Shown piece by piece: positions 5,957-31,036 of a DNA stretch of 64,000 nucleotides; positions within the stretch are counted from its first letter, which is position 1, and each line of letters opens with the position of its first letter. Source of the DNA: an uncultured delta proteobacterium (lineage in GTDB: Bacteria > Desulfobacterota > Binatia > UBA9968); NCBI GenBank assembly GCA_963847445.1, contig CAWJZV010000030.1, positions 566,257 through 630,256 on the forward strand. The letters run 5' to 3'. The notes below the pieces were generated by a model, which saw nothing but the letters and a program-made list of their open reading frames with translations, did no database searches and was not told the origin of the DNA. The translations under genes and the position numbers were made by a program.

Positions 5957-5998
5957 CGGGAACTGAGTCCGTACTTTCTCACTCGGCTCGTCGTCTCT

Positions 5999-6032
5999 CA
6001 ATCCAAAATCCAAAATCGAAAATCCAAAATCG
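5999..6032. repeat. AATCCAA/AATCGAA tandem repeat
   Basis: caatccaaaatccaaaatcgaaaatccaaaatcg. Confidence 0.75.
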
Positions 6033-6045
6033 ATATGCCTTACCC

Positions 6046-10219: not shown

Positions 10220-10330
10220 GCCGAACCATACAAGCCGTAAACTAGCTGCGCCCAGCGGCACCACCATGCTTGCCTGGGGAATCATAAGCCGTTTCTCCAA
10301 TCGGCTCCCTGGTTCGGGAGGTTGCCACCG

Positions 10331-11383: not shown

Positions 11384-11390
11384 GGCGATT

Positions 11391-12484
11391 ATGAAATTCC
11401 AATTCACAAACCCGTTCAAAGGTTCAAAGGTTCAAACGTTCAAGGTTCTCGGACCGCTAGTCCTTTCCGTCGTTGAACTGTTGAACCCTTTGAACCTTGA
11501 ACCGGCGTTTGCGCAGAGCGCCATTTCTATCAAGACAAGTCCGTGCGCATCATCGTCGGTTTCACGCCGGGCGGCTTCTATGACCGCTGGGCCAGGTTAC
11601 TATCGCGCTATATGCCCAAATACATCCCCGGCAACCCCACCTTCGTCGTGCAAAACATGCCCGGCGCGAGCTCGGTGATCGCCGCCAACTATGTCTATAA
11701 TTTGAGCAAGGCGGACGGCCTGACGCTGCTGGTGCCGATCAATAGTCTCTATCTCGATCAAGTGGTTGGCCGGCGTGAAGTAAAGTTCGATGTCAGAAAA
11801 TTCGAATTCATCGGCACGCAAGAAAAAGCTCCGACCATGCTCTACTTCCGTGCCGACAGTCCGTTCAAAACCCTGGGCGACATCATCAACGCCAAGGAAC
11901 CGCCGAAGTGCGGCTCCACCGGCACGGCGAGCACGGGATACCTGCTCGCCAGGATCATGGACGAAGCATTCAAGGCCAAAATGACCACCGTCACCGGCTA
12001 CCAGGGCGGCAGCGAGATCGACATCGCCGTCGAGCGCGGCGAGATCGTTTGCCGCGGCATGGACATCCCGCCGCACTTTGGCCGCGAACCGTTCGACGGC
12101 TGGCATAAGCGCGGCTTCGACCGGCATATCCTACAGAGCGGCCCCAAGAAAGATCCGCGCATGGGCGACGCGCCGACACTGTTCGAACTGATGGAGCAAT
12201 TCAAAACTCCCGAGGTCATGCGCGGTGTCGCACGGGTGATTCTGGCGAGCGGCGATTTTGGCCGGCCCATGGTCGCCGGCCCCGGCAATCCGCCCGAACG
12301 CATCAAAATCATGCGCGCCGCCTATGCCGGCGCGATGCGCGACCCGGGGCTCATCGAGGAAGCGAAAAAAAGCCAAATGGATATGGAACACACGCCGGGG
12401 GAAGAACTCCAGGCGCTGATGAAGGAATTGTTGAATCAACCGCGTGAAGTGATCGAAAGAGTTAAAAAAGTGTTGTCGGAATGA
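11391..12484 (+). CDS. tctC: TctC/Bug SBP #2 (palindrome-encoded signal peptide; frameshift ~11520)
   Basis: ORFs 11391-11678 and 11543-12484 joined. Confidence 0.88.
11412..11505. repeat. GTTCAA/TTGAAC leader palindrome copy 1
   Basis: ccgttcaaaggttcaaaggttcaaacgttcaagg-loop-cgttgaactgttgaaccctttgaaccttgaaccgg. Confidence 0.9.
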
Positions 12485-12491
12485 GGTTGCT

Positions 12492-13598
12492 ATGAAATGA
12501 TCAAACTCAGCAAGACCCGGTTCAAACGTTCAAAAGTTCAAAGCGTTCAAGCGTAAGCTTCGGATTCAGCTGATTCTTGTTTCTGATCCCTTGAACTTTT
12601 GAACCCCTTGAACCTTGAACAGGTATTCGCGCAAGCGAATTTCTATCAAGGTAAAACCATCCGCATCATCGTTGGCCTGACGCCGGGCGGCTTCTACGAT
12701 CGCTGGGCGCGCCTGCTCGCCCGCATTCATGCCGCTTTACATACCGGGCAATCCCAGCTTCATCGTGCAAAACATGCCGGGCGCGGGCTCGATGATCGCT
12801 ATGAATCATGTCTACGGCGTCGCCAAAGCCGACGGGCTGACCCTCGGCATGCCCAATTACGGCGTCTATCTCGACCAACTGTCAGGGCGTAAAGAAGTCC
12901 GTTACGACATCACCAAGATGTACTACATCGGCTCGCCGGAGAAGAGCGACATCATTCTCTACGCGCGCGCGGACGCCCCATTCAAATCAGTCCAGGACAT
13001 GAGAAAGCTCGCCGAGCCTGCTAAGTGCGGCGCCACCGGCACCGCCGGCGCGGACTACCTGATCGCGAAAGTTCTCGAAGACACCCTTGGGGTCAAGATC
13101 AATACGGTCGTCGGTTATGCCGGCGGCAGCGAGATCGACATCGCCGTAGAGAAGGGCGAAGTGCAATGCCGCGGCATGACCATCGCGCCGCACTTCGGCC
13201 GCGAGCCGTTCGATAGCTGGCATAAGAAGGGCTTCGATCAGCATATCGTGCAAACCTCGGAGAAGCGCGATGCCCGCGTCGCTGAGGTGCCGACGCTTTA
13301 CGAAATCTTCGACAAAGAAAACACCGCCGATGAGAGCCGACGGGTCGCCGATGTGATTTTGCGCGGCGGCGACTTTGGCCGCCCCATGCTGGCTGGTCCC
13401 GGCACGCCGCTCGACCGGGTGAATATGCTGCGCGAGGCTTACGTCAAATCAATGAACAATCCCGAGCTCATCGCCGAGGCGAAGAAAGCTCGTATGGACA
13501 TGGAGCCGGTCACCGGCGAACAGCTGCAAGCGCTGGCGAACAGAGTCATGAACCAACCGCCTGCCGTGCTCAAGCGCGTCAGAAAAATCCTTGAATAG
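12492..13598 (+). CDS. tctC: TctC/Bug SBP #3 (palindrome leader; frameshifts)
   Basis: LNPLNLEQVFAQANFYQGKTIRIIVGLTPGGFYD joined to ORF 12729-13598. Confidence 0.85.
12517..12623. repeat. Leader palindrome copy 2
   Basis: 4 GTTCAA units, loop, 4 TTGAAC units. Confidence 0.85.
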
Positions 13599-13659
13599 AT
13601 ATTTTGCCAATTGCCAATCATCACCATCGCCGGTCGTCAGCGGCCGGACGGGAGGACCC

Positions 13660-14702
13660 ATGAAAGCCCTAATCCTGGTGCTCTGTCTCGTTGGCGCGTG
13701 GACTTCTCCACCTGCCAGCCCAGACACCCTATTACCAAGGCAAGCAAATCAAAGTCGTCGTTGGTTTCACCACCGGCGGTTTTTACGATCGCTGGGCGAG
13801 ACTGCTGTCCCGATATATGCCCAAGCATATCCCGGGCAAGCCCGAGATGATTGTCCAGAATATGCCCGGCGCCGGCTCGGTCATCGCGGCCAATTTCGTC
13901 TATAGCGTCGCCAAAGCGGACGGACTGACCATCGGCTTCCCGAGCAATGCGCATTTACCTCGATCAATTGATCGGCCGCGGCGAAGTTAAGTACGACGTG
14001 CGCAAATTCGCTTGGATCGGCTCCCCGGTCACCGAGCCGATGATCTTTTATGTGCGCAGCGACTCGCCGTTCAAAACGATCCAAGACATCAAGAACGCCA
14101 AGGAGCCGGCGAAATGCGGTTCCACGGGCACGGTCAGCAGCGACTACATCCTGGCGCGACTGCTCGAAGAGACCTTGCCGCCGACCAAGATCAACACGAT
14201 TTTGGGCTATCCTGGAGGCGCCGAAATCGACTTGGCGGTCGAAAAAGGTGAAGTCTCTTGCCGCGGTATGACCGCTTCTCCCTTCTTTGGCCGGGAGCCC
14301 TTTCTCAGCTGGCAGAAGAAAAACTTTGTCCGCGTGCTCTTCTTCACCGGCAGCAAACGCGACAAACGGCTTCCCGATGTGCCGACGCTGTACGAGATAT
14401 TTGACCGGGAAAAGGTTCCCGAAGACCGGCGCCGCATAGCCGAGGTCATCCTTGCAGCCGAAGAGTTTGGCCGTCCGATCATCGCCGGACCCGGCACTTC
14501 AGCCGAGCAAGTCAAAATCCTGCGCCATGCTTTCGATCAATCTTTAAAGGATCCGGAGTTACTCGCGGATACAATAAAACAGAAAATGGATGTCGATCCC
14601 GAGAGCGGCGAGAACCTCGAAAAGCTCGTCGCCAAAACCATGAACCAACCCGCCGACGTTATCGCGCGGGTTAAAAAACTTCTCGGGCAATTAGTTGATT
14701 AA
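13660..14702 (+). CDS. tctC: TctC/Bug SBP #4 (ordinary signal peptide; frameshifts)
   Basis: GGAGG RBS, MKALILVL, GFTTGGFYD; ORFs 13691-13990 and 13947-14702. Confidence 0.87.
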
Positions 14703-14756
14703 ACCAATTTCGATGGTAATTTTCGCGTTAGAAAAAAATTAGGAGGTCAGAACTAG

Positions 14757-15786
14757 ATGTTAAGATTATTAGCAATTTTGTTTTCCTTGATGATCGGCCA
14801 GGCGGCCTACGCCCAGACCCCGTTCTATCAAGGAAAAACCATTACGATTATAGTCGGCACCAAAGCGGGCGATGCCTATGATTTATATCCGCGCATGCTC
14901 GCCGAGTTCATGCCCAAATATATTCCCGGCAATCCCAACATCATTATTCAGAACGTTCCTGGGGCGGCGTCGCTGATCGCGGCCAATCAAGTCTACAATA
15001 TCGCCAAACCGGATGGCCTGACCATCGCGGCCATCTATCCGGCGCTCTACTTCGAGCAGCTCACGAAAAAACCCCAGGTGAAGTTCGACTGGACCAAGTT
15101 CGGCTGGATCGGCAGTCCGGTGAAATCGAACCACATGCTCTACATGCGCGCGGACGCCCCGTACAAATCCATGGACGACATCAAAAATGCCAAGACGCCG
15201 CCCAAGTGCGGCGCCAGCGGCGTGACTTCCACCGGCAACTATCTGCCGAAGCTCATGGAAGAGATCCTCGGCACGAAGTTCGAGATCGTTCTTGGGTATC
15301 AAGCCGGCCAGGACGTGGATCTTGCCGTGGAGCGCGGTGAGATCGTGTGCCGGGCGTTCACGATCACCGCATACATGGCGCGCGAGCCGTTCATTTCGTG
15401 GCGCAAGCGCGGTTTCGTCAATGAGCTGATGCAAACCGGCGCCAAACGCGATCCGCGCTTGAAAAATGCGCCGACGATCTACGAGCTCATGGATCGGTAC
15501 AAAACCGACGCCGCCGGCAGAAGCCTCGGCAAGCTCATCCTGGCGGCAGGCGAGTTTGGCCGGCCGCTGGTCACTCCCCCAGGGTTCCCCGCTGCTCAGT
15601 TCAAGATCCTCCGGGAGGCTTTCGATAAAGCCGTGAGCGATCCTGCGCTGCTGGCAGCCGCGGAAAAACGTCGTCTGGAAATGGATCCGACGGATGGCGC
15701 GGAGATGGAAGCGTTGGCGAAAGAGGTCATGGCCGCAAGCCCTGAGCGTCGTAAAACGAGTGGAAGATCTTTTGGGCGGAAAATAA
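14757..15786 (+). CDS. tctC: TctC/Bug SBP #5 (ordinary signal peptide; terminal frameshift)
   Basis: AGGAGG RBS, MLRLLAIL..AYAQTPFYQGK, GTKAGDAYD; corrected end VEDLLGGK*. Confidence 0.9.
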
Positions 15787-15800
15787 AACACAGCTCCGGG

Positions 15801-15838
15801 TACCCCTCAAGGTTGCATCAGAGCGGCCTTGAGGGGTA
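15801..15838. promoter_or_regulatory. Intra-operon stem-loop
   Basis: Perfect 12-bp inverted repeat tacccctcaagg / ccttgaggggta, with no U-tract. Confidence 0.55.
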
Positions 15839-15874
15839 TGCTCCGGCAAATTTTCGGCGGGAAGGAGAAAATTT

Positions 15875-16903
15875 ATGTTTTCAACTCTCGTTGTATTGGC
15901 CACTCTTGTCTGGAGTTCAACTGTATTCGCGCAAACTCCCTTTTACCAAGGCAAGACCATCAGCATTGCCGCCGGCACCAAGGCCGGCGATGTCTACGAT
16001 CTCTATCCGCGTTTGCTCGCCGAGTATATGCCGAAGCATATTCCTGGCAGTCCCAATATCATCGTGCAAAATATCCCGGGCGCGGCTTCATTGATCGCCG
16101 CCAATCAGGTCTATAATACTGCCAAGCCCGATGGTCTGACTCTTGCGGCGATCTATCCCGCGCTCTATTTCGACCAGCTGATCAAGCGACCGGAAGTAAA
16201 ATACGATTGGGCTAAATGGCAGTGGCTCGGCAGTCCGGTAAAATCGAACCAACTCCTCTACATGCGCGCCGACACACCGTACAAGTCGATGGATGACATC
16301 CGCAAGGCGGCCACGGCGCCGAAGTGCGGCTCCACCGGTATCGCTTCCGCGGGGTACTACATACCCAAGCTGCTGGAGGAAGTGTTGAACGGCAAGATAG
16401 ACATTGTGTCGGGCTACGTGTCGGGACAGGATATCGATCTGGCGGTGGAACGCGGCGAGCTCCAGTGCCGGGCCTTCACGATTACCGCCTACTACGCCCG
16501 CGAGCCGTTTATCTCTTGGCGCAAACGGAATTTCACCAATGTGCTGGTACAAACCGGCAGCCAACGCGATGCTCGGATCAAGGAAACGCCGACCATTTAC
16601 GAGCTGATGGATAAGGCCAAAACCAGTGCGGCCGGACGGACCCTGGCGAAGGTGATCCTGGCCTCGGGGGATTTGGGACGCCCCATCGTCGCCCCTCCGG
16701 GAGTGCCGGCGGATCGGATCAAGATCCTCCGCGATGCCTTCGATAAGACGCTCGCCGACCCGGCGTTTCTTGCGGAAGCGGAAAGGCGTCGGCTCGAAAT
16801 CGATCCGACCAAATGGGATGAAATGGAATCCCTGGCAAAGGAAGTCATGCTTACGCCCGCCGACGTGGTCGCGCGCATGAAAAAGTTGCTGAGTGACGGC
16901 TAA
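15875..16903 (+). CDS. tctC: TctC/Bug SBP #6
   Basis: Intact 342 aa ORF, GTKAGDVYD. Confidence 0.92.
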   Translation: MFSTLVVLATLVWSSTVFAQTPFYQGKTISIAAGTKAGDVYDLYPRLLAEYMPKHIPGSPNIIVQNIPGAASLIAANQVYNTAKPDGLTLAAIYPALYFDQLIKRPEVKYDWAKWQWLGSPVKSNQLLYMRADTPYKSMDDIRKAATAPKCGSTGIASAGYYIPKLLEEVLNGKIDIVSGYVSGQDIDLAVERGELQCRAFTITAYYAREPFISWRKRNFTNVLVQTGSQRDARIKETPTIYELMDKAKTSAAGRTLAKVILASGDLGRPIVAPPGVPADRIKILRDAFDKTLADPAFLAEAERRRLEIDPTKWDEMESLAKEVMLTPADVVARMKKLLSDG

Positions 16904-16932
16904 AGGCAACAACCAGGAACGAAGCCAGCTGC

Positions 16933-17997
16933 ATGATCAACCAAGAGATCAGCGGATCGGTCCTGATCGTGTCGGCTATCGGTCCTGATTGCTCCTCTCG
17001 TCTGCTATTCGACCTGCGCTTTACGCCCAAACTCCCTTTTACCAGGGCAAAACCATCAGGCTCGTCGCCGGCACCCCGGCAGGCAGCGTGTACGATCTCT
17101 ATGCGCGCATGGTCGCCCAATTTCTCCCCAAGCATATTCCCGGCAATCCCAATGTCATCGTGCAAAACATGCCGGGGGTCGCCTCCATGGTTGCGGCCAA
17201 TTACATTTACACCGTCGCCAAACCCGATGGCCTGACCATCGGCTCGATCCAACCGGCGCTCTATTTCGATCAACTGGTCGGGCGCAAGGAAGTCCAGTTC
17301 GACTGGCAAAAATTTACCTGGATCGGCAACACCACGGTGTCGCACCATTTGCTCTACATGCGCAGCGACACGCCGTATAAAACCATCGAAGACATCCGCA
17401 AGGCCGCCGTGCCGCCCAAATGCGGCGCCGAAGGCACTGCGTCATCGGCCTACTACTTCCCCAAGCTCTTGGAAGAAACCATCGGCGCGAAGTTCAACAT
17501 CGTCACCGGTTACAACTCCGGCACCGATGTCGACCTGGCGGTGGAGCGCGGCGAAGTGCAGTGCCGCAGCCTTCACCATCGCCGCCTTCTTTGCCCGCGA
17601 GCCGTTTCACACCTGGCGCAAAAAAGGCTTTGTCCGGGTAATCGTGCAAACCGGCAAGAAACGCGATGGCAAAATACCCGATGTACCGACTCTGGAAGAA
17701 CTCATGGACCAGCATAAGACGTCCGACTCGGCGCGCCGTCTGAGCGCGGTGATCTTGGCCGCCAATGAGATCGGCCGGCCGATCGTCGGCACTCCCGGGA
17801 TTCCGGCCGATCGTGTGAAAATTCTCCGCGAAGCTTTCATGAAGACAGTGACCGATCCAGAGCTCTTGGATGACGCCAAAAAGAAAAAACTCGACTTGGA
17901 TCCGGTCTCCGGCGAGGAGCTGGAGAGTCTCGGCAAAGAGATCATGGCGCAACCGCCGGACGTCATCGAACGCATGAAAAAACTATTGGGAAGTTAA
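16933..17997 (+). CDS. tctC: TctC/Bug SBP #7 (frameshifts)
   Basis: GTPAGSVYD; ORFs 16989-17717 and 17527-17997. Confidence 0.87.
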
Positions 17998-18033
17998 AAG
18001 CGCCAAGACAAACGGATCAAAGGAGAAGCCAAC

Positions 18034-19080
18034 ATGAAAAGACTCGCATTCGTTCTATTCGTCCTGTCTGTCCTATTCAGTCCGCACGGCTTAACCTGCA
18101 TGCGCAGACGCCATTCTACCAAGGCAAGACGATCACGATCATCGTCGCGCGCCAAGGCGGGCGACATCTATGACCTTTACCCACGCCTGGTCGCGGAATT
18201 CATGCGGCAGGCATATTCCGGGAAACCCGAACATCATCATTCAAAACGTCGCCCGGCGCCGCCGGCCTGATCGGCACCAATCAGGTTTACAATATCGCCA
18301 AACCTGACGGTCTGACCCTCGGCGCGATCTATCCGGCGCTCTATTTCGAGCAGCTCGCCAAACGGCCCGAAGCCAAATTCGACTGGACCAAGTTCATCTG
18401 GATCGGCAGCACGGTGAGCTCCAACAGTCACATGTATATGCGCGCCGATACCCCGTATAAAACCATCGAAGATGTCCGTACCGCAGCGACGCCGCCGAAA
18501 TGCGGCGCAACGGGCGTAACCTCGTCGGCCTATTACATGCCGAAACTCCTCGAAGACGCTATCGGCACCAAGTTCGAGATTGTCTCAGGTTATGTCGCCG
18601 GGTCGGATATCGACCTCGCCGTCGAGCGCGGCGAAGTTCAGTGCCGGGCCTTTACGATCAACGCCTTCTTCTCCCGCGAGCCATTTATCACCTGGCGCAA
18701 GAAAAATTTCGTGCGCGTGCTCTATCAGACCGGCAGCAAGCGCGATGCACGGCTCAAGGACGTGCCGTTGTTCAGCTGAATTGATGGACAAGTACAAGAC
18801 GCGCTGAAAGCGTCCGGCGGCTCGCCAAAGTGGTGCTGGCCGCCGATGAATTCGGCCGTCCGCATCGTCTTCCCTCCAGGCGTGCCCTGCCGACCGGGTA
18901 AAGATCATTCGCGATGCTTTCAACAAGACCATCAACGATCCCGCTCTCTTGGCGGAGGCGGAAAAGCGCCGACTCGACATCGACCCGGCAACGGGTGAAG
19001 AACTCGATTCCTTGGCCAAAGAAGTCATGACCGCGACGCCGGACATCGTCGAACGGGTGAAAAAACTGATCGGCATGTAA
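18034..19080 (+). CDS. tctC: TctC/Bug SBP #8 (many frameshifts)
   Basis: MKRLAFVLF leader, KAGDIYDLYPR, PPKCGATG, RVKKLIGM*. Confidence 0.83.
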
Positions 19081-19116
19081 CGGCGCAGGTAGGCCACTGC
19101 CTGCTGCAGAAGGGCG

Positions 19117-20207
19117 ATGCAAAGGTCGCTCAAAGAGTTCAAAGGTTCAAGATTCAAGGTTGCTCAATCTCGAATCGTATCGACCGTCGCTTGATCTTTT
19201 GACACGCCTTTCTGAACCTTGAACCGGCGTCGGCGCCAGACGCCCTTCTATCAAGGCAAGACGATTCGCATCGTCATCGGCTCCTCCACCGGCGGCGGTT
19301 ACGATCTGTGGGCGCGCGTTTTAGCGCGCTACTACGGCAAATACATCCCGGGTAATCCAACAATTCTCGTGCAGAACATGCCCGGCGCGGCGTCGATCGT
19401 CGCGACCAATTATTTGTACAACGTCGCCAAGCCCGACGGTCTGACTCTCGGCGCGCTGCTGCCGGCGATTTACTTCGATCAGCTGGTCGGGCGCAAAGAA
19501 GTGCAGTTCGACTTCGCCAAGATTCCCTGGATCGGCTCGCCGGAACAAAACGACGATCCTGCACTACATGCGCGCCGATTCGCCCTACAAGTCGATCGAC
19601 GACATCCGCAAAGCCAAGGAGCCGCCGCGTTGCGGCAGCTCCGGCACCGGCACGACTGGATTTTATATTCCCCGCCTGCTCGACGAAGTCCTGGGCACGA
19701 AACACACTGTCGTCGCCGGCTATCCTGGCGGCTCCGAAATCGATCTCGCCGTCGAACGCGGCGAAGTGCACTGCTGGTCGCCGCTGATTGCGACGTACTT
19801 CGGCCGCGAGCCCTACATTAGCTGGCAGAAGAAGGGCTTCGTTCGAGTGATCGTGCAGTTCGGCGCCAAGCGCGAGCCGCGCCTGGCCGACGTGCCGACG
19901 ATTTACGAGTTGATGGATCAATTCAAAACTCCCGACGCCGGCAAGCGCCTGACACGCGTGATCCTGGTCGCCGCGACCCTCGGTCGGCCCATCGCAGTCA
20001 CGCCGGGAATTCCGCCCGACCGCTTGAACCTGCTGCGCGATGCCTATCAAAAGACGTTGAAAGACCCCGAACTCATCGCCGAGACCAAACGCCAACGCTG
20101 GGACATCGACCCGCTCACCGGCGAAGAGATGGAAAAACTTTCAAAAGAAGTCATGAGCGCAGCCGAAGGAAGTCATCGAAAGAATGAAATGGGTCTTGGG
20201 AAACTAA
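19117..20207 (+). CDS. tctC: TctC/Bug SBP #9 (degenerate palindrome leader; frameshifts)
   Basis: GSSTGGGYDLWAR; ORFs 19219-19821 and 19568-20215. Confidence 0.85.
19136..19227. repeat. Leader palindrome copy 3 (degenerate)
   Basis: agttcaaaggttcaagattcaagg ... tgaaccttgaaccgg. Confidence 0.7.
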
Positions 20208-20211
20208 CATT

Positions 20212-21301
20212 ATGAATTCAAAGACCGTTCAAAAGTTCAAAGGTTCAAACGTTCAAGGTTCTCGCACTTCTGATCTTCTCCGTCGTTGAACTTTTGAACC
20301 CTTTGAACCTTGAACAAGCGTCTGCGCAGCAGACGCCCTTCTACCAAGGCAAAACCATCACCATGGTGGTCGCTTCCACCGCCAGCGGCGGCTACGATCT
20401 GTGGGCGCGGCTGACGGCGCGTTACATCGGCAAGTACATTCCCGGCAATCCGACCATCGTCGTGCAGAACATGCCGGGCGCGGGCAATATCATCGGCGCC
20501 AACTACGTCTATAGCGTCGCCAAGCCCGACGGCTTGACTCTCGGCGCGGTCAATCCGGCGCTTTACTTCGATCAGCTGGTCGGACGATCCGAGGTGAAAT
20601 TCGATTGGGCCAAATTCAACTGGATCGGTTCGCCGGAGAAAAACGACATCGTTTCCTACATGCGCGCCGACACGCCGTACAAAACCATCGACGACCTGCG
20701 CAATGCCAAAGAACCGCAAAAATGCGGCAGCACCGGCACCGGCAGCACCGGCCATTACATTCCCCGCCTGCTCGAAGAAACCCTCGGCATCAAGACCCAG
20801 ATCGTCAGCGGTTATCCCGGCGCCGCGGATATCGAACTCGCCATCGAGCGCGGCGAAGTGTTTTGCTGGTCGCCGCTCTTGGCCACCTACTTCGGCCGCG
20901 AGCCCTACCGGCGCTGGCATAAGTCCGGCTACGTCCGCGTCATGGTCCAAACCGGCGCCAAGCGCGACCCGCGCTTGAAAGACTCGCCGACGTTGAACGA
21001 ATTGATGCAGCAGTATAAATCCCCCGAGCCGGCCCGCCGTCTCGCCAAAGTGATTCTCACCGCCGCCACCTTAGGCCGTCCCATCGGCGCCGCCCCGGGC
21101 GTTCCGGCAGATCGCGTGAAGATCCTGCGCGATGCCTATGCCAAAGCCATCGCCGATCCCGAGCTGCTCGCCGAAGCGGCCAAGCAAAGTTGGGAAGTCG
21201 ATGCGACCAAGGGTGAAGAGCTGCAAGCGTTATCGAAGGAAGTCATCACCCAGCCCAAGGAAATCATCGAGCGCATGAAGTGGGTGCTTGGGCGGGAGTA
21301 A
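20212..21301 (+). CDS. tctC: TctC/Bug SBP #10 (palindrome leader)
   Basis: PFKSSKVQTFKVLALLIFSVVELLNPLNLEQASAQ in frame with ORF 20294-21301; indel near the ATG. Confidence 0.9.
20225..20315. repeat. Leader palindrome copy 4
   Basis: 4+4 unit structure. Confidence 0.9.
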
Positions 21302-21305
21302 TAAA

Positions 21306-22387
21306 ATGCTAAGCCCGTTCAAGGGTTCAAAAGTTCAAAGGTTCAAGGTTTTCGGACTTCTGATCTTTTCTGTCGTTGAACTTTTGAACCCTTTGAACCT
21401 TGAACGGGCGTCTGCGCCAGACGCCCTATTATTCCAGGCAAGACTCTCAAGATCATCGTCGGGTCAGCGTCCGGCGGCGGCTACGACCTGTGGGCGCGCT
21501 TACTGGCGCTGCATATCGGCAAACATATTCCCGGCCATCCAACCGTGATCGTGCAAAACCTGCCCGGGGCCGGCGGCCTGGTTGCCGGCAATTTTATCTA
21601 TGGTCTGGCCAAACCCGACGGCCTGACCATCGGCGCGTTCAATCCAGCGCTCTATTTCGAACAACTGGTCGGCAAGCCGGAGAGCAAATTCGATTGGACT
21701 AAGTTCAGCTGGATCGGCTCGCCGGAAAAGAATGACGCGCTGCACTACATCCGCGCCGACTCGCCCTACAAAACCATCGACGACCTGCGCAACGCCAAGG
21801 AGCCGCCCAAGTGCGGCAGCACCGGCGGCGGCACCACCGCCCATTACTTTCCCCGGCTGCTCGAAGACACCCTGGGCATTAAAACCACCCAGGTCACCGG
21901 CTATCAGGGCGGTTCAGAAATCGACCTCGCCGTCGAACGCAACGAAATAATCTGCTGGACGCCGCTGATCGCCACCTACTTCGGCCGCGAGCCCTACAAG
22001 CGCTGGCACAGGACGGGATTCGTCCGCGTCGTCGTCCAGACCGGCAACAAGCGCGACGAACGGTTAAAGGATGTACCGACGCTCACCGAACTGATGCAGC
22101 AGTATAAAACCCCTGAGGCCAGCCGCCGGCTCGCCAAAGTCGTGTTAACCGCCGCCAACCTCGGCCGCCCCATCGCCGGCCCGCCGCGCCTGCCGTCCGA
22201 ACAATTAAAAATTCTCCGCGACGCCTACGCGAAATCGATGCAAGATCCCGAGCTCCGCAGCGAAGCCGCCAAGCGCGCCTGGGATGTCGAGCCCCACACC
22301 GGCGCCGAACTTGAAGCGTTGGCGAAGGATGTCATGAACCAACCCAAAGAAGTGATCGAGCGGATGAAATGGGTGTTGGGGAACTAA
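21306..22387 (+). CDS. tctC: TctC/Bug SBP #11 (palindrome leader; frameshifts ~21415-21435)
   Basis: MLSPFKGSKVQRFKVFGLLIFSVVELLNPLNLERASA plus ORF 21545-22387. Confidence 0.88.
21313..21409. repeat. Leader palindrome copy 5
   Basis: Perfect 12-bp terminal IR gcccgttcaagg / ccttgaacgggc. Confidence 0.92.
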
Positions 22388-22438
22388 TCTCTAGGCCGCG
22401 AGTGGACGATTGCGCACAAGTATTAACTCTGCAAAATC

Positions 22439-22534
22439 CGTCACACCGGCGCAGGCCGGTGTCCATTTCCGGCTTCGGCAGACTAGCAAAAAGACCACAA
22501 CCGCCCCTGGATTCCGGCCTGCGCCGGAATGACG
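22439..22534. repeat. CGTC-type REP doublet
   Basis: cgtcacaccggcgcaggccggtgtcca ... tggattccggcctgcgccggaatgacg. Confidence 0.8.
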
Positions 22535-22637
22535 GAACCCGCACACAGACAACTTGCAACCGACAGCACTAAACTGACAAGCTTCAATGCAAAGAATCTC
22601 TGGTCTAATCTGATATACGCTGAGTGTGAGGCCATTC

Positions 22638-23765
22638 ATGACCGTTGGATTTCAAGATTCGCTCAAACGTTCCCCTCGGCGGACTCAGGGCCTGAGTTTA
22701 TCGAAGGCAACAGTTCAAAGGTTCAAGGTTCTCGGACTCCTGCTCTTTTCAGCCCTTGAACTTTTGAACCCCTTGAATCTTGAACGAGTATTCGCGCAGG
22801 CGAATCCCTATCAGGGTAAAACGCTGCGGGTGATCGTCGGTTCATCGAGCGGCGGCGGTTACGATCAGTGGGCACGCCTGATGGCGCAGCATATCGGTAA
22901 ACATCTACCCGGCCATCCGACGGTTATAGTTCAGAATATGGTCGGCGCCGGCGGGGTGGTTGCCGCGAATTATTTATACGGCATTGCCAAGCCCGACGGC
23001 TTGACCATCGGCGGTTTCAACCCGGCGCTCTATTTCGATCAATTGGTGGTGCGGCCGGAAGTTAAATTCGATTGGGCGAAATTCACCTGGATCGGCTCGC
23101 CGGAAAAAAATGACCTCATCCACTTCATCCGTACCGACGCACCGTTCAAAACCATCGACGACTTGCGCAATGCCAAGGAACCGCCGAAATGCGGCAATAC
23201 CGGCACCGGCAATAGCGGTCTCTACGTGCCGCGCGTGCTCGAAGAAACCCTCGGCATCAAGACCACCGTCATCAGCGGCTATCCCGGTGGCGCGGAAATC
23301 GACCTCGCCGTCGAACGCAACGAAGTGGTTTGCTGGTCGCCCTTGAGCGGCACTTACTTTGGCCGCGAGCCCTATAAGCGCTGGCACAACTCCGGCTTCG
23401 TCCGCGCCGTCGTCCAGACCGGCGCCAAACGCGACGAACGACTGAAGGAAACACCGACGCTGAATGAATTGATGCAGCAATACAAAACACCCGATAGCGG
23501 CAAACGGCTCGCCAAAGTGATCCTCACCGCAGCCACTCTCGGCCGCCCCATCGCCGCTCCGCCGCGCCTGTCCGCCGAGCAGACAAAAATTCTCCGCGAC
23601 GCTTATACCAAGACGATGAAGGACCCGGATCTGCTCGCCGATGCCGCCAAACGCGGCTGGGACGTCGACCCATCGACCGGTGCCGAGCTCGAATCGCTGG
23701 CGCGGGAAGTCATCGTCCAACCCAAAGAAGTTATCGAGCGCATCAAGTGGGTATTGGGGAATTGA
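22638..23765 (+). CDS. tctC: TctC/Bug SBP #12 (palindrome leader with nested in-frame insertion)
   Basis: Intact ORF; GSSSGGGYD. Confidence 0.92.
   Translation: MTVGFQDSLKRSPRRTQGLSLSKATVQRFKVLGLLLFSALELLNPLNLERVFAQANPYQGKTLRVIVGSSSGGGYDQWARLMAQHIGKHLPGHPTVIVQNMVGAGGVVAANYLYGIAKPDGLTIGGFNPALYFDQLVVRPEVKFDWAKFTWIGSPEKNDLIHFIRTDAPFKTIDDLRNAKEPPKCGNTGTGNSGLYVPRVLEETLGIKTTVISGYPGGAEIDLAVERNEVVCWSPLSGTYFGREPYKRWHNSGFVRAVVQTGAKRDERLKETPTLNELMQQYKTPDSGKRLAKVILTAATLGRPIAAPPRLSAEQTKILRDAYTKTMKDPDLLADAAKRGWDVDPSTGAELESLAREVIVQPKEVIERIKWVLGN
22661..22786. repeat. Leader palindrome copy 6 with 36-bp nested hairpin (22672-22707)
   Basis: Insert cccctcggcggactcagggcctgagtttatcgaagg splits the left arm. 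Confidence 0.85.
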
Positions 23766-23776
23766 AGAATGGAGTA

Positions 23777-24800
23777 ATGGAATATTACGGTAGTGGAGTG
23801 ATGGAACCTGACAAGCGGCCCCGCAGACAAAAATGGGCGGGGCGTCTTACGCTTTGCGCTTTGCTCTTTGCACTTAGCCTCCCCGCCCAGGCGCAGCAGC
23901 CGGCAAAGGTGTTTAAGATTGGCTATCTCGATATCGGTAGCTCAATGTCCAGATATCAGTCTTTGCGGCGTATCCTCCCTGATCTCGGCTACGTTGAGGG
24001 CAGGAACATCTCCTTCGAGTATCGATCGGCTGACAACAAGCTGGACCGACTTCCCGCCTTAGCTGAAGAGCTGATCCGTCTCGATGTTGACGTACTCGTC
24101 ACACGCGGCACACCTGAAGCCCTAGCTCTCAAGAACGCTACCAGGACAATTCCTATTGTTTTTTACGACGTGACTGATCCTATTGCGGCGGGACTCATTG
24201 ACAGCCTGGCCCGGCCTGGTGGAAATATCACAGGGTTTACCGGGTTGGAGGCGGTGTTGGCAGGCAAACGATTGGAGTTACTGAAGGAAACCGTTGCCAA
24301 ACTCTCCCGCGTCGCGGTGTTATGGAATCCGCAGGATCTAAGCTCGGCGCAACAATGGAAAGCAATGCAACTGTCGGCACGCGACCTGGGGTTACAACTG
24401 CATTCGATGGAAGTCAGCAATCCCGACAAATATGAGAGTGCGTTCAGAGAAGCAACTAAAGCGCGGAGTGGCGCTCTCGCTGTGATAGCCGGAGGGTTGG
24501 AAGACGCGAACAGAAAAAAGATCGCAGAGTTGGCAATAAAGATTCGGCTGCCAACAATATATCCTCGTCCACATTTTGTCGAAAGCGGCGGACTGATGTC
24601 CTACGGACGCGATCCTGAAGATTCTAACAAACGGGTACCAATTATGGTCGACAAGATTCTGAAAGGAACCAAGCCTGCTGACATTCCAGTCGAACAGCCG
24701 ACTAAAGTTCGAGCTGGTGATCAATTTCAAAACCGCCAAGACTCTCGGCCTGACGATTCCACCGATCGTGCTGATGCGGGCGACCAAGGTGATCAAATGA
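23777..24800 (+). CDS. ABC transporter substrate-binding protein (ABC_sub_bind), terminal frameshift
   Basis: AQQPAKVFKIGYL, SLARPGGNITG, KILKGTKPADIPVEQPTK; start uncertain. Confidence 0.88.
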
Positions 24801-24891
24801 AGAAGGCAGTAGGCATGAGGCAATAGGCAACGGTAAAAAAGAAAGATAACCGCGATAGTTTGGATCAGCCCCCTTTTATAGGAGCTAAACC

Positions 24892-25464
24892 TCACCGCCA
24901 AAGATCAGGGAGCGAAATGGATAGACCAGGGAAAAGCAACGGGGTAAACGTTTCGGCGTTTTGAGTTTTAATGACGAGCTGGTATTGGTCGCCGGATAGT
25001 TCGTAGGCTTCGAGAGTCTGTTGATCGGGGTCGATGAGCCAGTAGTGAGGCACGTCGTACTTGGCGTAAAGCTGAGCTTTAGTCTGGCGGTCTGCGCGGT
25101 GCGTTGTGGGTGATAGGATCTCGATGACGAGACTCGGTGCCCCTTCGATGGCCCGCTCTGTGACAATGCCGCGGCGGTCGTCGCCAATGAAGATGAGATC
25201 GGGCTGCACGACGGTCGTGGGAGCGAGTATCACGTCGGTAGGCGCCGCGTAAATATCGCCAAGTTGGTTGGCCACAATATGGTTGGCGAGAATCCGATAA
25301 AGGTGGCCAGAAATGCTTTGATGTTTTGTGCGCGGCGCAGGCGTCACGGCAAGTTCTCCATCGAGGATCTCGTAACGGTTACGGTCGTTAGGCAATTCGC
25401 AGTAATCGTCGTAGGTCAGAACGATCTTGCCTGGCGGAATGCTTTGAGTGGAAGTAGACGACAT
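24892..25464 (-). CDS. Uma2 family (DUF820) putative endonuclease
   Basis: LTYDDY..RYEILDG..P...HQ, VQPDL, LVIEILSP, K..LY, YWLIDP. Confidence 0.92.
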   Translation of the reverse strand: MSSTSTQSIPPGKIVLTYDDYCELPNDRNRYEILDGELAVTPAPRTKHQSISGHLYRILANHIVANQLGDIYAAPTDVILAPTTVVQPDLIFIGDDRRGIVTERAIEGAPSLVIEILSPTTHRADRQTKAQLYAKYDVPHYWLIDPDQQTLEAYELSGDQYQLVIKTQNAETFTPLLFPGLSISLPDLWR

Positions 25465-25578
25465 ATTAGCTTCTTACAACGACTGTGAACTTTATACATG
25501 CAGGTTCTAGCAACTCGAACGGGTTGTCAAGTGAGCCAATGACCCGGCCCTGAGTTCCATGACTCTTGGGAGAACAAC

Positions 25579-26210
25579 GTGATCAAAAAGCTATCCGGAG
25601 ATCGTGAATTCCTGTCCGACAATCGAAAATCCGTCGTGCTTATCGCTATCGGTGCCGCATTCGCGTTGTGCGGCGCTCTCGCCGACGCGCAACAACGAAC
25701 GAAAATCCCCTGGATCGGCTATATGGCTGACGCCGGCTCGTCGCCCAACCAAGCTTTTCTACAAGGGTTGCGCGATCTCGGCCATTTCGAGGGCAAGAAC
25801 ATCGCATTTGTCTTTCGCACGACGGAGGGAAAACTGAACGGCGCGCCGAACTTCTCGCCGAGTTTGTACGCTTAAAGGTTGACATCATTTTCGCCGATGG
25901 ATCGGGCGCGGCGATTGCCGCCAAGAAGGCCACGAGCACGCTTCCGATTGTAATGACCGGTGCTACCGATGCAGTTGGCATGGGCCTCGTCGCCAGCCTA
26001 GCGCGGCCTGGCGGTAACATAACGGGATTGACCAACATCACCGGAGAGTTGGGTGGAAAACTTTTGGATCTAAGATTCTCAAGGGCGCGAAACCAGCTGA
26101 CTTCCGGTTGAAGCACCGATGAAATTCAATCTAGAGATTAACTTACAAACGGCGAAACAGATTGACCTGACGGTCCCTCAGACAGTGCTGTAGGGCGGAT
26201 AAGAGTGACC
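25579..26210 (+). pseudogene. ABC_sub_bind SBP remnant with large internal deletion
   Basis: N-terminus AQQRTKIPWIGY..., SLARPGGNITGLT, then jumps to [14 protein letters not shown]. Confidence 0.75.
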
Positions 26211-26318
26211 AAGAAGGCAGCAGACAAAAGGCAAGAGTAAGAAATCCCCATTGCACTCAGGCTAGACTTCGCGGTACTCATAGGCGGCGTTATCCGCTTG
26301 TTAACCATGAGGTGATTC

Positions 26319-27415
26319 ATGACGCACGGGGAAAAACATCCGTTCCAAAGTTCAAAGGTTCAAGCGTTCAAGGTTCTCGGATTTCTGGTGTTTTCTGTCG
26401 TTGAACTTTTGAACCCTTGGAACCTTGAACCGGCGGCGGCGCAGACGCCGCCGTTTCTATCAAGGCAAAACCATCACGTTCATCGTCGGCACCAAGGCTG
26501 GCGATGTTTACGATCTCTACCCGCGGCTGTTGGCGGAGTACATGCCGAAGTATATTCCGGGAAATCCTAACTTCATCATTCAAAACGTCGCCGGCGCGGC
26601 GTCGCTGATCGCGGCGAACCAGGTGTACGGCATCGCCAAGCCCGACGGGTTGACGCTCGGCGCGATTTATCCGGCGCTTTATTTCGATCAATTGGTGAAA
26701 CGGCCGGAAGTGAAATACGACTGGAGCAAGTTTGCCTGGATCGGCAGTCCGGTGGGCTCCAACCACATGATGTACATGCGCAGCGACACGCCCTTCAAGA
26801 CTATTGACGATGTGCGCGGCGCCGCGACGCCGCCCAAATGCGGCACCTCGCGGCACCACGTCGACCGGCTATTATATTCCCAAACTCTTGGAAGAAGCGG
26901 TCGGCGCCAAATTCGATATCGTCACCGGTTACCAGGCCGGCCAGGACGTAGACCTCGCCGTCGAGCGCGGCGAGGTGGTCTGCCGCTCATTCACCATCAC
27001 GGCGTTTCACGCCCGCGAGCCCTACTTCAGTTGGCGCAAGCGCAAATTCGTCCACGTGCTCTATCAAACCGGCAACAAGCGCGACGGGCGGTTGAAAGAT
27101 GTGCCGACCATGTACGAATTGATGGATCGATACAAAACCACCGAGCCGGTGCGCAAGCTCGCCAAGGTTATTTTAATCGCCAGCGACCTGGGCCGGCCCA
27201 TCGTCGCCCCGCCGGGCGTGCCGGCCGAGCGCTTGAAAATCATCCGCGATGCCTTTAACAAGTCGGTGAGCGACCCGGCATTCTTAGCCGAGGCGGAAAA
27301 GCGCAGGTTGGAAATCGATCCATCGACTTGGGATGAGCTCGAACCCTTGGCCAAGGAAGCCATGGCGACGCCGGCCGATGTGGTTGAACGCATGAAAAAA
27401 GTCTTGGGCATGTAA
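26319..27415 (+). CDS. tctC: TctC/Bug SBP #13 (palindrome leader; frameshifts)
   Basis: MTHGEKHPFQSSKVQAFKVLG..., GTKAGDVYDLYPR. Confidence 0.88.
26340..26432. repeat. Leader palindrome copy 7
   Basis: ccgttccaaagttcaaaggttcaagcgttcaagg ... ttgaacttttgaacccttggaaccttgaaccgg. Confidence 0.88.
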
Positions 27416-27441
27416 AGCCATTGAGGTTAAGGAGGTTGTTC

Positions 27442-28540
27442 ATGAAGTCTGCCGTCAAGCGGCCGTTCAAAGGTTCAAAGGTTCAAACGTTCAACGGTTC
27501 TCGGTTTTCTGGTCTTTTCCATCGTTGAACTATTGAACCCTTTGAACCTTGAACCGGCGGCGGCGCAGACGCCGCCTTTTTATCAAGGCAAGACTATTCG
27601 TATCATCGTCGGCAATCTGCCCGGCGATACCCATGACATATTTGCCCGCGCTTACTCGCGTCACATGGGCAAACATATTCCCGGCTTCCCGAATATCCTG
27701 GTGCAGAACATGCCCGGCGCCGGCGGCATGATCGCGGCCAATCATGTCTACAACGTTGCCAAGCCGGATGGACTGACGCTCGGTTCGCCGTCGCCGGCGT
27801 TGTATTACGCCCAGCTGATCGGCAGCAGCCAAGCCAAATTCGATTGGCCCAAATTCAATTTCATCGGCGCGCCGGAGCGCAACGGCCATTTGTTGTTCAT
27901 GCGCGCGGACTCGCCCTATAAGACGCTCGACGATATCCGCAAAGCCAAGGAGCCGCCCAAATGCGCCGCCACCGGAGTCGGCACCAGCGGCCACGACGTG
28001 CCCAAGCTGTTTGACGAGATGATCGGCTTGAAGTTCAACCTGATCACCGGTTATCCCGGCGGCGCGGAGATGGATCTAGCCATCGAACGGGGCGAAGCGA
28101 TTTGCCGTGCCATCACCATCGCGGCGTTCTTCGCCCGCGAGCCCTTTCAGAGCTGGTATAAGACCGGTGTCGTGCGCGTCATGTTGCAAACCTCGCGTCA
28201 GCGCAACCCAAGAATTCCCGACGTGCCGACGTTGTTCGAGCTGATGGAGCAATACAAAACTCCGGAGATCAAGCGCCGCCAGGTGCTGACCTATCTCGGC
28301 GTTGGCGGTTTCGGCGCCTGGCCCATCCTCGCGACGCCAGGAATCCCGGCGGAGCGCGTGGCGATCCTCCGCGACGGCTTCGGCAAGACCATGAAAGATG
28401 CCGACTTCCTCGGCGAGGCGAAAAAAGCCGGTTGGGAAATCCGTCCGACGAACGGCGAAACCTTGCAGGCACTCGCCAAAGAAGTCATCGAACAACCGCC
28501 GGAAGTGGTCGATTGGCTGAAAAAACTACTCAACAAATAA
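27442..28540 (+). CDS. tctC: TctC/Bug SBP #14 (palindrome leader)
   Basis: AAGGAGG RBS, MKSAVKRPFKGSKVQTF, GNLPGDTHD. Confidence 0.9.
27462..27557. repeat. Leader palindrome copy 8
   Basis: 4+4 unit structure. Confidence 0.9.
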
Positions 28541-28560
28541 CCTGACAATGAGAAGTCTCC

Positions 28561-29683
28561 ATGGCACTTCGACTAACGATCGTTCAAGGGCCTTCCGGTT
28601 CAGCCGAGTTTACGAAGGCAAAAGTTCAAGGGTTCAATCGGATTCTTTTCGGATTTCTTGTTCTGACCCTTGAACTTTTGAACCCCTTGAACCTTGAACG
28701 GGCGTCTGGCCCAGACGCCCTATTATTTGGGTAAAACCATCCGCGTCATCGTCGGTTATCAGCCAGGAGACACCCATGATCTATGGGCGCGCATGTACAC
28801 GCGCTATATGGGCAAGTACTTGCCCGGCAATCCGACCTTTGTGGTGCAAAACATGCCCGGTGCCGGCGGCATGATCGCCGCCAATCATGTTTTCAATCTG
28901 ACCAAGCCCGACGGCCTGACGCTTGCCACCGTCGGCGGCGCGCTTTACTTCAATCAGTTGATCGGCCGTGCGGAAGTTAGATTTGACTGGAACAGGTTCA
29001 CTTGGATCGGCACGCCGGAGCCCGCCGGCCTGCTGGTCTACATGCGCACCGACGCGCCGTATAAGACCTTGGACGACCTGCGCCAGACCAACGATCCGCC
29101 GAAATGTTCCGCCACCGGCTTGGGCAGCGCCGGTTACGACTTGCCGCGGCTGCTCGAAGATGTCTTAGGGCTTAAATTCAAAGTCATCAGCGGCTACCCC
29201 GGCGGCGCCGACCAGGATCTCGCCATGGAACGGGGCGAAGTCCACTGCCGGGCTTTTACCATCGAAGCCTTTTTCGGCCGCGAACCTTATTTCACCTGGG
29301 TCAAGAAAAACTTCGTGCGCGTGCTGTTGCAAACCGAACGAAAGCGCCATCCGAAGTTGCCCGACACACCGACCATCTACGAACTGATGGATCAGTACAA
29401 GATTGACGCGGCCAAGCGGCGCATGGCCAGCGTCTATCTCAGCAGCGGCCGGTTCGGCTCCCGGCCGATCGTGTCGTCGCCGGGGTTATCGGCGGAACGC
29501 GCCAAAATGCTGCGCGACGCCTACGCGAAGACCCTCAAAGATCCCGACTTTCTCGACGAGATCGGCAAACGGAGCTGGAGCGTCGAACCGGTATACGGCG
29601 AAGAATTGCAGGCGCTCGCCAAAGAAGTCACCAGCCAGCCGCCGGAAGTGATCGAGTGGTTAAAAAAATTGTTGTCGAAATAA
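28561..29683 (+). CDS. tctC: TctC/Bug SBP #15 (palindrome leader; frameshifts in leader)
   Basis: GYQPGDTHD; ORF 28694-29683. Confidence 0.88.
28581..28703. repeat. Leader palindrome copy 9 with nested insert (~28591-28618)
   Basis: ccttccggttcagccgagtttacgaagg precedes caaaagttcaa, the same junction as copy 6. Confidence 0.75.
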
Positions 29684-29706
29684 TTCGATTCGAAGCGAGG
29701 TCGGCC

Positions 29707-30805
29707 ATGGCAAATAAATCGAAACAGCGGTTCAAACGTTCAACGGTTCAATCGTTCAACGTTCTCGGACTCCTGATTTTTTCCGTCGTTGAACTTTTGA
29801 ACCCCTTGAACCTTGAACCGGCGTCGGCGCAGACGCCGCCTTTTTATCAAGGCAAAACCATTCGCATCATCGTCGGCTACCAGCCGGGCGACAATCACGA
29901 CCAGTACGCGCGCACCTACGCGCGCTTCATGGGCAAGTATATTCCCGGCAATCCCACCTTCGTGATTCAGAACATGCCGGGCGCGGGTTCGATGATCGCG
30001 GCCAATCATGTCTACAACATGACCAAGCCCGATGGGCTGACGCTGGGCTCCTTCGGCGGCGCGCTGATTATGGCGCAGCTGACCGGACGCAAAGAAGCGC
30101 AGTTCGACTGGCCGAAGTATGGTTGGATCGGTACCCCCTACCGCGCCGGCCACCTGCTCTTTATGCGTACCGACGCGCCCACCAAGACGGTCGACCAATT
30201 GCGCCAGGGGAACGACCCGCCGCGCTGTTCGGCCACCGGCGTCGGCAGCACCGGCTATGACATTCCCCGGCTGCTCGAGGATGCCCTCGGCATGAAATTC
30301 AAGATCATCAGCGGTTATCCTGGCGGCGCCGACCAGGACCTGGCAATGGAACGCAACGAAGTGAACTGCCGCGCCATCACCATCGACGGCTTCTTCGCCC
30401 GCGAGCCGTTCATCTCGTGGGTCAAGAAAGGCTTCGTGCACGTGCTGCTGCACACGGAAAAACAGCGCCACGCCAAGATCCCCAACGTGCCAACCGTCTT
30501 CGAGCTGATGGATCAGTACAAGGTCGCCGAGGCCAAACGCCGCCTGGTCAACACCTATTTGGGACTCTGGGGCTTCGGCTCCATGCCCATCGTCACCACG
30601 CCCGGAGTTGCCCGCCGAGCGGGTCAAGCTGCTGCGCGAAGCGTATTTGAAAACCTTTACCGATCCGGAATTTCAGGAAGACATGGTGAAAAGAGGCTGG
30701 GAACCGCGCCCGGTGAACGGCGACGAACTCGCCGCTCTCGCCAAAGACGTCATCAATCAGCCGCCGGAAATCAGCGAAGCAATCAAACGGATACTCAGTC
30801 AATGA
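29707..30805 (+). CDS. tctC: TctC/Bug SBP #16 (palindrome leader; frameshift ~30605)
   Basis: MANKSKQRFKRSTVQSFNVLGLLIFSVVELLNPLNLEPASAQ, GYQPGDNHD. Confidence 0.9.
29728..29821. repeat. Leader palindrome copy 10
   Basis: cggttcaaacgttcaacggttcaatcgttcaacg ... cgttgaacttttgaaccccttgaaccttgaaccg. Confidence 0.9.
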
Positions 30806-30828
30806 TCGCCTGAAAAAATCATCGACAG

Positions 30829-31036
30829 GCGACTCCGGGACTGCCGCCGGAGCGGGTGCACTTATTACGCGAAGCGTTCGCCAAGATGTTCAAAGACCCG
30901 GAGTTTGTCGCCGAGCTAAAAAACGCAACTGGGAAATGGAACCCGTCGGCGGTGAAGAGCTACAAAGCCTCGCCGAAGAAGTGGTCAAAGCCGGCCGAGT
31001 GTCGCCACGGCGTTGAAACGAATCCTGAGCCAATAA
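30829..31036 (+). pseudogene. 3' fragment of a further tctC paralog
   Basis: ATPGLPPERVHLLREAFAKMFKDPEF...GEELQSLAEEVV...LKRILSQ*. Confidence 0.7.

Follow-up and report, generated by a model that had tools for sequence, protein, structure and literature searches.

Translated GTTCAA-unit palindromes as probable export leaders of tandem tctC genes in an uncultured Binatia genome

The window analysed here is a 64,000-nucleotide stretch of an uncultured delta proteobacterium (Binatia, UBA9968; contig CAWJZV010000030.1 of assembly GCA_963847445.1, positions 566,257 to 630,256), and it carries a tandem array of genes for the binding protein TctC, ten of which are preceded by an imperfect DNA palindrome built from the hexamer GTTCAA. 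In most secreted proteins the signal peptide evolves fastest and is the part least constrained as DNA. The reverse appears to hold for these genes: as arms of a repeat element, the n- and c-regions of the predicted leader have fixed nucleotide sequences with rare codons, and the loop alone evolves as protein. The locus raises the question of what the palindrome is, whether it is translated, and what keeps its arms alike. Our analysis indicates that the tctC leaders are probably domesticated copies of a genus-specific palindromic repeat with GTTCAA units, translated as an export signal, and it supports the main points of an initial annotation of the window that had read the palindromes as signal peptides. 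Searches of the full-text literature (supplements not covered) found no description of repeat-encoded signal peptides.

The two strands of the window together contain the hexamer GTTCAA 101 times, compared with 30.1 ± 5.7 times in 100 shuffled sequences, none of which gave 101. Most of the excess falls in ten sites between 11414 and 29818, each ahead of a tctC paralog, and the inverted repeat with which the initial annotation had these genes begin is confirmed at all ten. The palindromes share a plan of ~90 nt, in which a T-rich loop of ~29–40 nt has two to four GTTCAA units ahead of it and two to four TTGAAC units after it; nine have at least two exact units per arm, and the tenth (19137–19224) is degenerate. 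Units of complete copies have a spacing of 8,8,8 on the left and of 8,9,7 on the right. Folding of five copies together with flanking sequence gave −38.9 to −52.7 kcal/mol (z of −2.6 to −6.3 against shuffles); the folded leader consists of four helices of 6 bp each, with small internal loops between them and a short GC-rich hairpin directly after. The copies are as follows:

Copy 1, 11414..11502, + strand: 4+4 units, loop 29; ATG at 11392 in the leader frame; a 1-nt change, with the frame lost before FY
Copy 2, 12520..12620, + strand: 4+4 units; enlarged 40-nt loop containing stops
Copy 3, 19137..19224, + strand: decayed, with two left units, one right unit and stops
Copy 4, 20227..20315, + strand: 4+4 units, loop 29; leader and mature domain in the same frame, ATG in another frame
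Copy 5, 21317..21405, + strand: 4+4 units, loop 29; two 1-nt shifts downstream of the palindrome
Copy 6, 22713..22785, + strand: 2+2 units to 22769, loop 29, a further unit ending at 22785; uninterrupted open reading frame (ORF) 22626–23765
Copy 7, 26350..26430, + strand: 3+2 units to 26414, loop 29, a further unit ending at 26430; frame lost directly before YQGK
Copy 8, 27465..27554, + strand: 4+4 units, loop 30; one extra base between left arm and loop (1-nt frame change)
Copy 9, 28624..28699, + strand: 2+4 units, loop 32 (type B); a 1-nt change, with the frame lost inside the small hairpin
Copy 10, 29730..29818, + strand: 4+4 units, loop 29; ATG at 29707 in frame to the mature domain

Each non-degenerate copy has one frame that reads as a basic stretch, a hydrophobic stretch, ELLNPLNLE and A-x-A-Q, followed by the conserved mature start FYQGKT; the segments proposed in the initial annotation (FKGSKVQTFK, VLGLLIFSVV, ELLNPLNLE and AxA-Q) were thus recovered in one frame of every such copy. 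With residues 1–50 of the copy-10 protein as query, 60 leader proteins were obtained from 64 candidates of 202–644 aa (ENA, JGI, NCBI and Logan; 58 of the 60 with a PF03401 domain). The leader is in frame in all 60, and every one has an ATG upstream of the palindrome that is in frame with both the palindrome and the TctC domain. Among 38 leader copies at loci of 15 further genus members' genomes, 28 have an in-frame ATG upstream of the left arm; among all leader copies examined the count is 30 of 45, and 24 of these 30 have a Shine-Dalgarno-like tetramer 3–13 nt ahead of the ATG. The median distance from the ATG to the first unit is 11 nt. A singleton tctC gene elsewhere in the source genome (C8:95420, on contig C8) also has an intact leader.

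The product has the shape of a signal peptide, although a long and unusual one to judge by its sequence. Sec-type (signal peptidase I) criteria were scored heuristically; 90 leaders have a median length of 39 aa, an n-region charge of +4, an h-region of 10 aa with a hydropathy of 2.9, and a c-region of 13 aa with two Glu, and position −1 is Ala in 90/90, with A, V, L, T, S or I at −3. The corresponding medians for 13 ordinary paralog signals are a length of 21, a charge of +1, an h-region of 14 and a c-region of 4. Loop sequences are highly variable among copies yet remain hydrophobic. Since TTGAAC contains TGA, the right-arm spacing 8,8,7 (the commonest in the family of repeats with 7/8-nt spacing; 10 copies) places TGA in all three frames, whereas by arithmetic on the sequences the spacing 8,9,7 leaves one frame open. 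Within the source genome this open spacing occurs in tctC leaders only, and 16 of the genus's 31 genomes have it (a tally that includes G005, flagged as unpublished), mostly at ~1.1-kb intervals, that is, in tctC arrays. The leader was found on no other protein family among the 64 candidates, and the 36 long open frames read in the source genome included no non-TctC gene with the palindrome as its N-terminus. Two database proteins, P0001 (395 aa) and P0004, have two complete leaders in tandem ahead of one TctC domain, which shows that whole palindromes can be duplicated within an ORF.

What is conserved in the leader is the word, not merely the pairing. Codons lying within the hexamers are invariant and rare in the genome, including TCA (24/24; 6% of Ser codons) and AGT (15/15; 10%), and further hexamer codons behave likewise: GTT (26/26; 14%), CTT (25/25; 9%) and TTG (29/29 and 27/28; 21%), as well as GAA (28/28 and 29/29). 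Spacer bases in the same arms vary (CTT/CTC/CTA/CTG; CCC/CCT). In the equally conserved mature motif FYQGKT synonymous codons vary too, with TTC 19 and TTT 9, TAC 12 and TAT 17, CAA 20 and CAG 5, and AAA 18 and AAG 11. The complementarity that the initial annotation had placed at the DNA level is borne out by this difference, in that rare hexamer codons never vary, unlike synonymous codons at the conserved start of the mature protein. DNA identity is higher in the leader than in the mature region for 36/36 pairs of window genes (medians 0.83 vs 0.70), and reaches 0.97 in the right arm. For 17 of 30 leaders none of 100 synonymous recodings folds as stably as the real sequence (mean z of −2.8). 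No Rfam family matched: the highest-scoring models, of miRNA precursors, gave 28.5 and 24.1 bits, where the gathering scores are 65 and 82.

The palindrome belongs to a repeat family that extends through the genome and the genus. Clusters of at least two GTTCAA units number 420 in the source genome, compared with 0–19 for eight control hexamers (CTTGAA, which overlaps the unit, gives 102), and they resolve to 102 palindromes and 243 single arms in two spacing families, of 9 nt and 7/8 nt. Measured against a rough gene finder made for this analysis, whose predictions cover 68% of the genome, 13 of the 102 palindromes lie in predicted genes (random sites, 2052/3000) and 89 outside, which fits the hairpin mini-element postulated by the initial annotation. 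Palindromes are placed after stop codons: only 2 of the 89 are in divergent spacers, vs 173 of 926 random intergenic sites; the median distance from the end of the upstream gene to the palindrome is 14–22 nt; and many, when read directly, begin 2–10 nt past TAA or TGA and end directly before a GGAG-type site and ATG. The untranslated arrangement is found even among tctC genes, three of which stand in tandem on contig C24, each with a 9-nt-unit palindrome ahead of its Shine-Dalgarno site and ATG and with a normal signal peptide. Single arms, read in the mRNA sense, tend to begin ~14–17 nt after a stop codon. The tandem unit was present in 18/18 sampled genomes of the genus (again including G005), with 7 to ~400 hits each, and as single hits only in 2 of 12 genomes from other families of the order; the reversed unit pattern gave zero hits in all genomes sampled. 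Named records with the leader arm are assigned to Candidatus Binatia, (uncultured) delta proteobacterium or Deltaproteobacteria, Thermodesulfobacteriota and a few others. Both homologues that NCBI names have names starting with 'Candidatus Bin...', and all names that start so belong to Candidatus Binatota.

On a tree of the mature domains the leader is scattered. The tree (quick IQ-TREE search, LG+G4, unrooted) comprised 91 domains, of which 60 follow an ordinary signal, 30 follow a palindromic leader and one is doubtful, namely all ORFs of 300–345 aa counted from the F/Y-Y-x-G-K motif in the source genome and the fetched loci; broken genes were left out. The palindromic label requires at least 8–9 changes, compared with ~26 when shuffled, and forms two large clades together with isolated cases inside clades of ordinary signals. 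Loop types A (29 nt) and B (32 nt) have almost no phylogenetic signal, with 9 changes for 10 B rows among 31 leader-bearing rows (the doubtful row included). Among database proteins the same mature ortholog occurs with different leader N-termini or loop types (P0007 and P0030, compared with window copy 7), and contigs of related strains link the flank of one paralog to the palindrome of another. The scatter of leader presence and loop types suggests a leader that behaves as a cassette exchanged between paralogs, and such exchange also offers a non-selective route to conservation of the arms. This unrooted tree does not distinguish gains from losses of the leader. The role of recombination handle that the initial annotation had suggested for the palindrome gains support from both distributions; the leader's portability, which it had also proposed, is supported likewise, with the leader so far found on TctC proteins only.

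We propose the following route, in which the intergenic element presumably came first. The usual repeat occupies an operon junction, from a few bases past a stop codon up to the Shine-Dalgarno site that precedes the next start codon. At tctC leaders, by contrast, the downstream gene has its start codon 5′ of the hairpin, and with the start upstream the hairpin is translated. Its left arm then encodes a Lys-rich n-region, its T-rich loop a 10-residue hydrophobic core and its right arm ELLNPLNLE, and a short GC-rich stretch supplies A-x-A|Q ahead of the conserved mature N-terminus. The extra base in the second right-arm spacer (8,9,7 rather than 8,8,7) keeps one frame clear of the TGA in TTGAAC. 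The product is most likely a long Sec-type signal peptide of a periplasmic binding protein, which would be exported and cleaved after the A-x-A. Identity of the hexamers may arise from constraint on the DNA or RNA word itself or from continual homogenisation by recombination between copies, and the loop would tolerate any change that preserves its hydrophobicity. As RNA, the hairpin may in addition shield the upstream cistron's 3′ end, or throttle or couple initiation. A selfish or regulatory operon-junction hairpin could in this way supply ready-made export signals, because its translation happens to run basic, hydrophobic, polar. With dozens of naturally varying leaders, this one protein family would also provide a test system for whether strong mRNA structure a few codons past the start is tolerated, exploited or required.

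Several observations weigh against this interpretation. For a signal peptide the leader is unusual in its length (39 vs 21 aa), its short h-region (10 vs 14) and its long c-region with two Glu (13 vs 4). Thirteen of the 30 leaders do not fold more stably than every recoding. The compensatory changes that the initial annotation proposed to look for did not exceed shuffles in the large hairpin (84.6% of cells paired; covariation score 0.047 vs 0.044 in shuffles, 121/500 as high), whose spacer positions are mostly unpaired, so that neither word-level selection nor gene conversion is separable from selection on pairing. In the assembly only the copies at 22713 and 29730 run uninterrupted from ATG or GTG to the mature domain and 8/10 are broken; 10/38 leader copies of other genus genomes are interrupted as well. 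The frame break of copy 1 is common to a copy in another genome of the genus (L015:1552). An RNA-labelled run (X20) gave short contig pieces within gene bodies only (e.g. 21706–22006 and 28239–28506), with none over a leader, and DNA carry-over is possible there.

The breaks could be taken to mean that the palindromic tctC genes of the source genome are mostly dead, the array decaying and the leaders relics. Besides the eight interrupted leaders, 5 of 15 array genes lie in more than one frame, tctA is divided, and the substitutions of copy 3 and the enlarged, stop-bearing loop of copy 2 go beyond what indel errors explain. These last two are real sequence differences, since contigs of related strains have ordinary palindromes at the copy 2 and copy 3 loci (joints 12491>21317, 21415>12644 and 26453>19246). 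We nevertheless think general decay unlikely. Single-frame tctC bodies make up 10/15 of the array genes and 78/106 of those elsewhere in the genome, and breakage is not special to the array because the broken fraction elsewhere is similar (28/106). Contigs from two other sequencing runs are without one base at 17568, exactly the position where gene 7 changes frame, and the gene bodies are still ~50% identical to intact paralogs, without stops within each frame piece. The causes of the breaks are mixed, some of them probably being assembly indels, and rpoB is intact in the assembly. Right-arm indels at 12604, 20302, 21392, 28683 and 29805 were rejected as locus variants, their depths of 100–290 reflecting other repeat copies piling up. 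That the palindrome is non-coding, with the true start 3′ of it, is scarcely tenable. An in-frame TTG lies within the right arm, and four ORFs of the ORF list begin there, but this TTG sits in a stem, has no Shine-Dalgarno site and would yield a binding protein without a hydrophobic signal. True starts downstream of the palindrome, which the initial annotation had counted among the outcomes fatal to its reading, are ruled out because of the upstream in-frame ATGs of the homologues (60/60) and genus copies (28/38), with Shine-Dalgarno-like sites at 24/30. For annotation this carries a warning, as gene callers begin several of these genes within the hairpin and the signal peptide is lost.

If the leader is translated, it might still be an uncleaved signal anchor or be cleaved elsewhere, so that ELLNPLNLE...A-x-A would be the linker of a binding protein tethered to the inner membrane. 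The path from the hydrophobic core to A-x-A, which is long (median 13 aa, vs 4 in ordinary-signal paralogs) and contains acidic residues, and the short core of 10 aa speak for a tether, which we regard as quite improbable given Ala at −1 in 90/90 leaders, a small or aliphatic residue at −3, and an A-x-A placed relative to the mature N-terminus as in the ordinary-signal paralogs. A hairpin without present DNA or RNA function is a weightier alternative, if still a doubtful one: the signal peptide would be repeat-derived, and its arms would be alike only through frequent gene conversion or unequal exchange among tandem paralogs. Lack of covariation in the large hairpin, the scatter of leader and loop types over the tree and the strain contigs that combine flank and palindrome of different paralogs are all compatible with it, and concerted evolution predicts the excess of leader over body identity in 36/36 pairs. 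The same hexamer is retained, however, in the singleton at C8:95420 and in 16/31 species genomes; hexamer bases are fixed in arms whose spacer bases vary, where conversion tracts would homogenise both; and intergenic copies retain the word genome-wide. At the other extreme, the hairpin could be a module actively read by an unknown factor, which would recognise the hexamer word or the segmented stem, making each tctC cistron junction a post-transcriptional control point (a decay barrier, a processing site or structure-dependent translational coupling) as well as a swappable signal-peptide cassette; this is a speculative reading that we hold to be unlikely. We continue to favour a repeat-derived leader translated for export.

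Such a leader has partial parallels among known elements. Rickettsia palindromic elements (RPEs) are likewise dispersed palindromic repeats found in frame within protein-coding genes and translated; in contrast to the present repeat they lie inside proteins, and they are not known to form N-terminal export signals, to be built of tandem 8–9-nt units or to be tied to stop/start junctions. REP/BIME and ERIC-type enterobacterial palindromes resemble most copies described here in being abundant, imperfect and positioned just past stop codons in operons, but they are not known to be translated, whereas the tctC copies are translated and have arms that repeat a single hexamer. RAYT (Y1) transposases are the enzymes associated with REPs. 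The initial annotation's search for an adjacent cognate enzyme gene came to nothing here: the genome has four PF01797 (Y1-transposase) matches, none flanked by the repeat, with the nearest GTTCAA cluster at least 1.5 kb off or absent from the contig. PARCELs are also coding DNA with dyad symmetry, often in membrane-targeted proteins, and are thought to be shuffled within genomes; they are tandem 25-residue domains in ORFs of unknown function that have spread horizontally, not single signal-peptide hairpins. Of traits typical of MITEs, the arms act as inverted repeats, and the flanks by eye form a C...G stem extension, not a direct repeat.

The GC-rich hairpin that follows the palindrome was located at six of the ten window copies by a terminator-like consensus scan, its T-rich tail being the F-Y codons of the mature protein:

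Copy 1, 11504..11522, + strand: small GC hairpin over the A-x-A|Q site
Copy 5, 21406..21426, + strand: small GC hairpin of 9 pairs
Copy 7, 26431..26453, + strand: small GC hairpin
Copy 8, 27556..27576, + strand: small GC hairpin with a T-run after it
Copy 9, 28700..28720, + strand: small GC hairpin
Copy 10, 29819..29838, + strand: small GC hairpin with a T-run after it

Forms encoding ASAQTP, ASAQQTP or AAAQTPP reach −13 to −21 kcal/mol and are more stable than their recodings. The FAQAN form reaches −4 to −9.5 kcal/mol and is no better than recoding, and the small hairpin was rejected on this account as a general feature. Its mean energy is −10.7 kcal/mol in the leader type (n = 45) vs −8.2 in ordinary signals (n = 19; Mann-Whitney p = 0.033), and in 20 FAQAN-type copies 116/120 cells are paired, with 3 two-sided changes and 4 breaks, which is suggestive only. 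We regard the hairpin over the cleavage site as a partly supported, secondary feature. Intergenic GTTCAA palindromes often adjoin a short GC-rich hairpin of unrelated sequence (e.g. C33:35010, C30:275626, C4:214329 and C14:174810), a layout that matches the two hairpins of the leaders.

The frame of copy 1 is lost within 11504–11545 at the same spot (CCATTTCTATCAAG) as in L015:1500–1570, a leader-type copy of genome G040. Both bodies go on in another frame after the shared break, that of the window for ~320 codons without a stop; the common break may reflect recoding, a real mutation present in both genomes or a systematic error made in both assemblies.

The leaders lie in an operon of the tripartite tricarboxylate transporter type, with the gene order tctB, ~16 tctC and tctA:

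9785..10219, + strand: tctB (membrane subunit), head of the operon; PF07331, E 6.3e-08
10322..30990, + strand: tandem tctC array of ~16 paralogs (Bug-family binding protein); tblastn map, PF03401
31140..32755, + strand: tctA (large membrane subunit), in two overlapping frames; PF01970 on both ORFs

The tblastn map divides several of the tctC paralogs between reading frames, and the break in tctA, near profile position 275 of 423, is one more single-site break in the assembly. PF03401 matches two of the window genes at 61.5 and 47.1 bits (cut-off 27), which places them in the TctC/Bug family. The array is interrupted at 23747–25464 by a gene for an ABC-type binding protein (PF04392) and an opposite-strand gene for a putative Uma2 endonuclease. 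In the source genome (7.19 Mb in 48 contigs, 91.8% complete) PF03401 has 78 profile matches; Bug/TctC expansions such as that in Bordetella reportedly also comprise very many PF03401 copies per genome. To our knowledge the Bug proteins described so far have ordinary signal peptides, and none has been reported with a repeat-derived leader. Sequencing runs labelled soil, sediment and biofilter contain 27–55% of the sampled words.

Unpaired single arms, each with three GTTCAA units at 9-nt spacing, occur in the window at 5923–5946 (+ strand) and 55394–55417 (− strand), and are part of the 243 single-arm clusters. The spacer that holds the first of these also holds, at 5985–6035, a different short tandem repeat of AATCCAAA-like 8-nt units, so the genome has more than one family of unit repeats. 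Arrays of TTGAAC units at 7–9-nt spacing, some longer than 150 nt, were also seen in metagenome-assembled genomes (MAGs) labelled Bacteroidales, Flavobacteriales, Cytophagales and Vicinamibacterales, at the following loci:

L037, L043, L044, L046, L048, L051, L054, L056, L060, L064, L067, L073 and L080: TTGAAC arrays in MAGs of other phyla, not linked to tctC

The hexamer may thus recur in unrelated phyla. The GTTCAA unit with its following purine resembles the conserved T-arm/T-loop word of tRNAs, possibly by coincidence.

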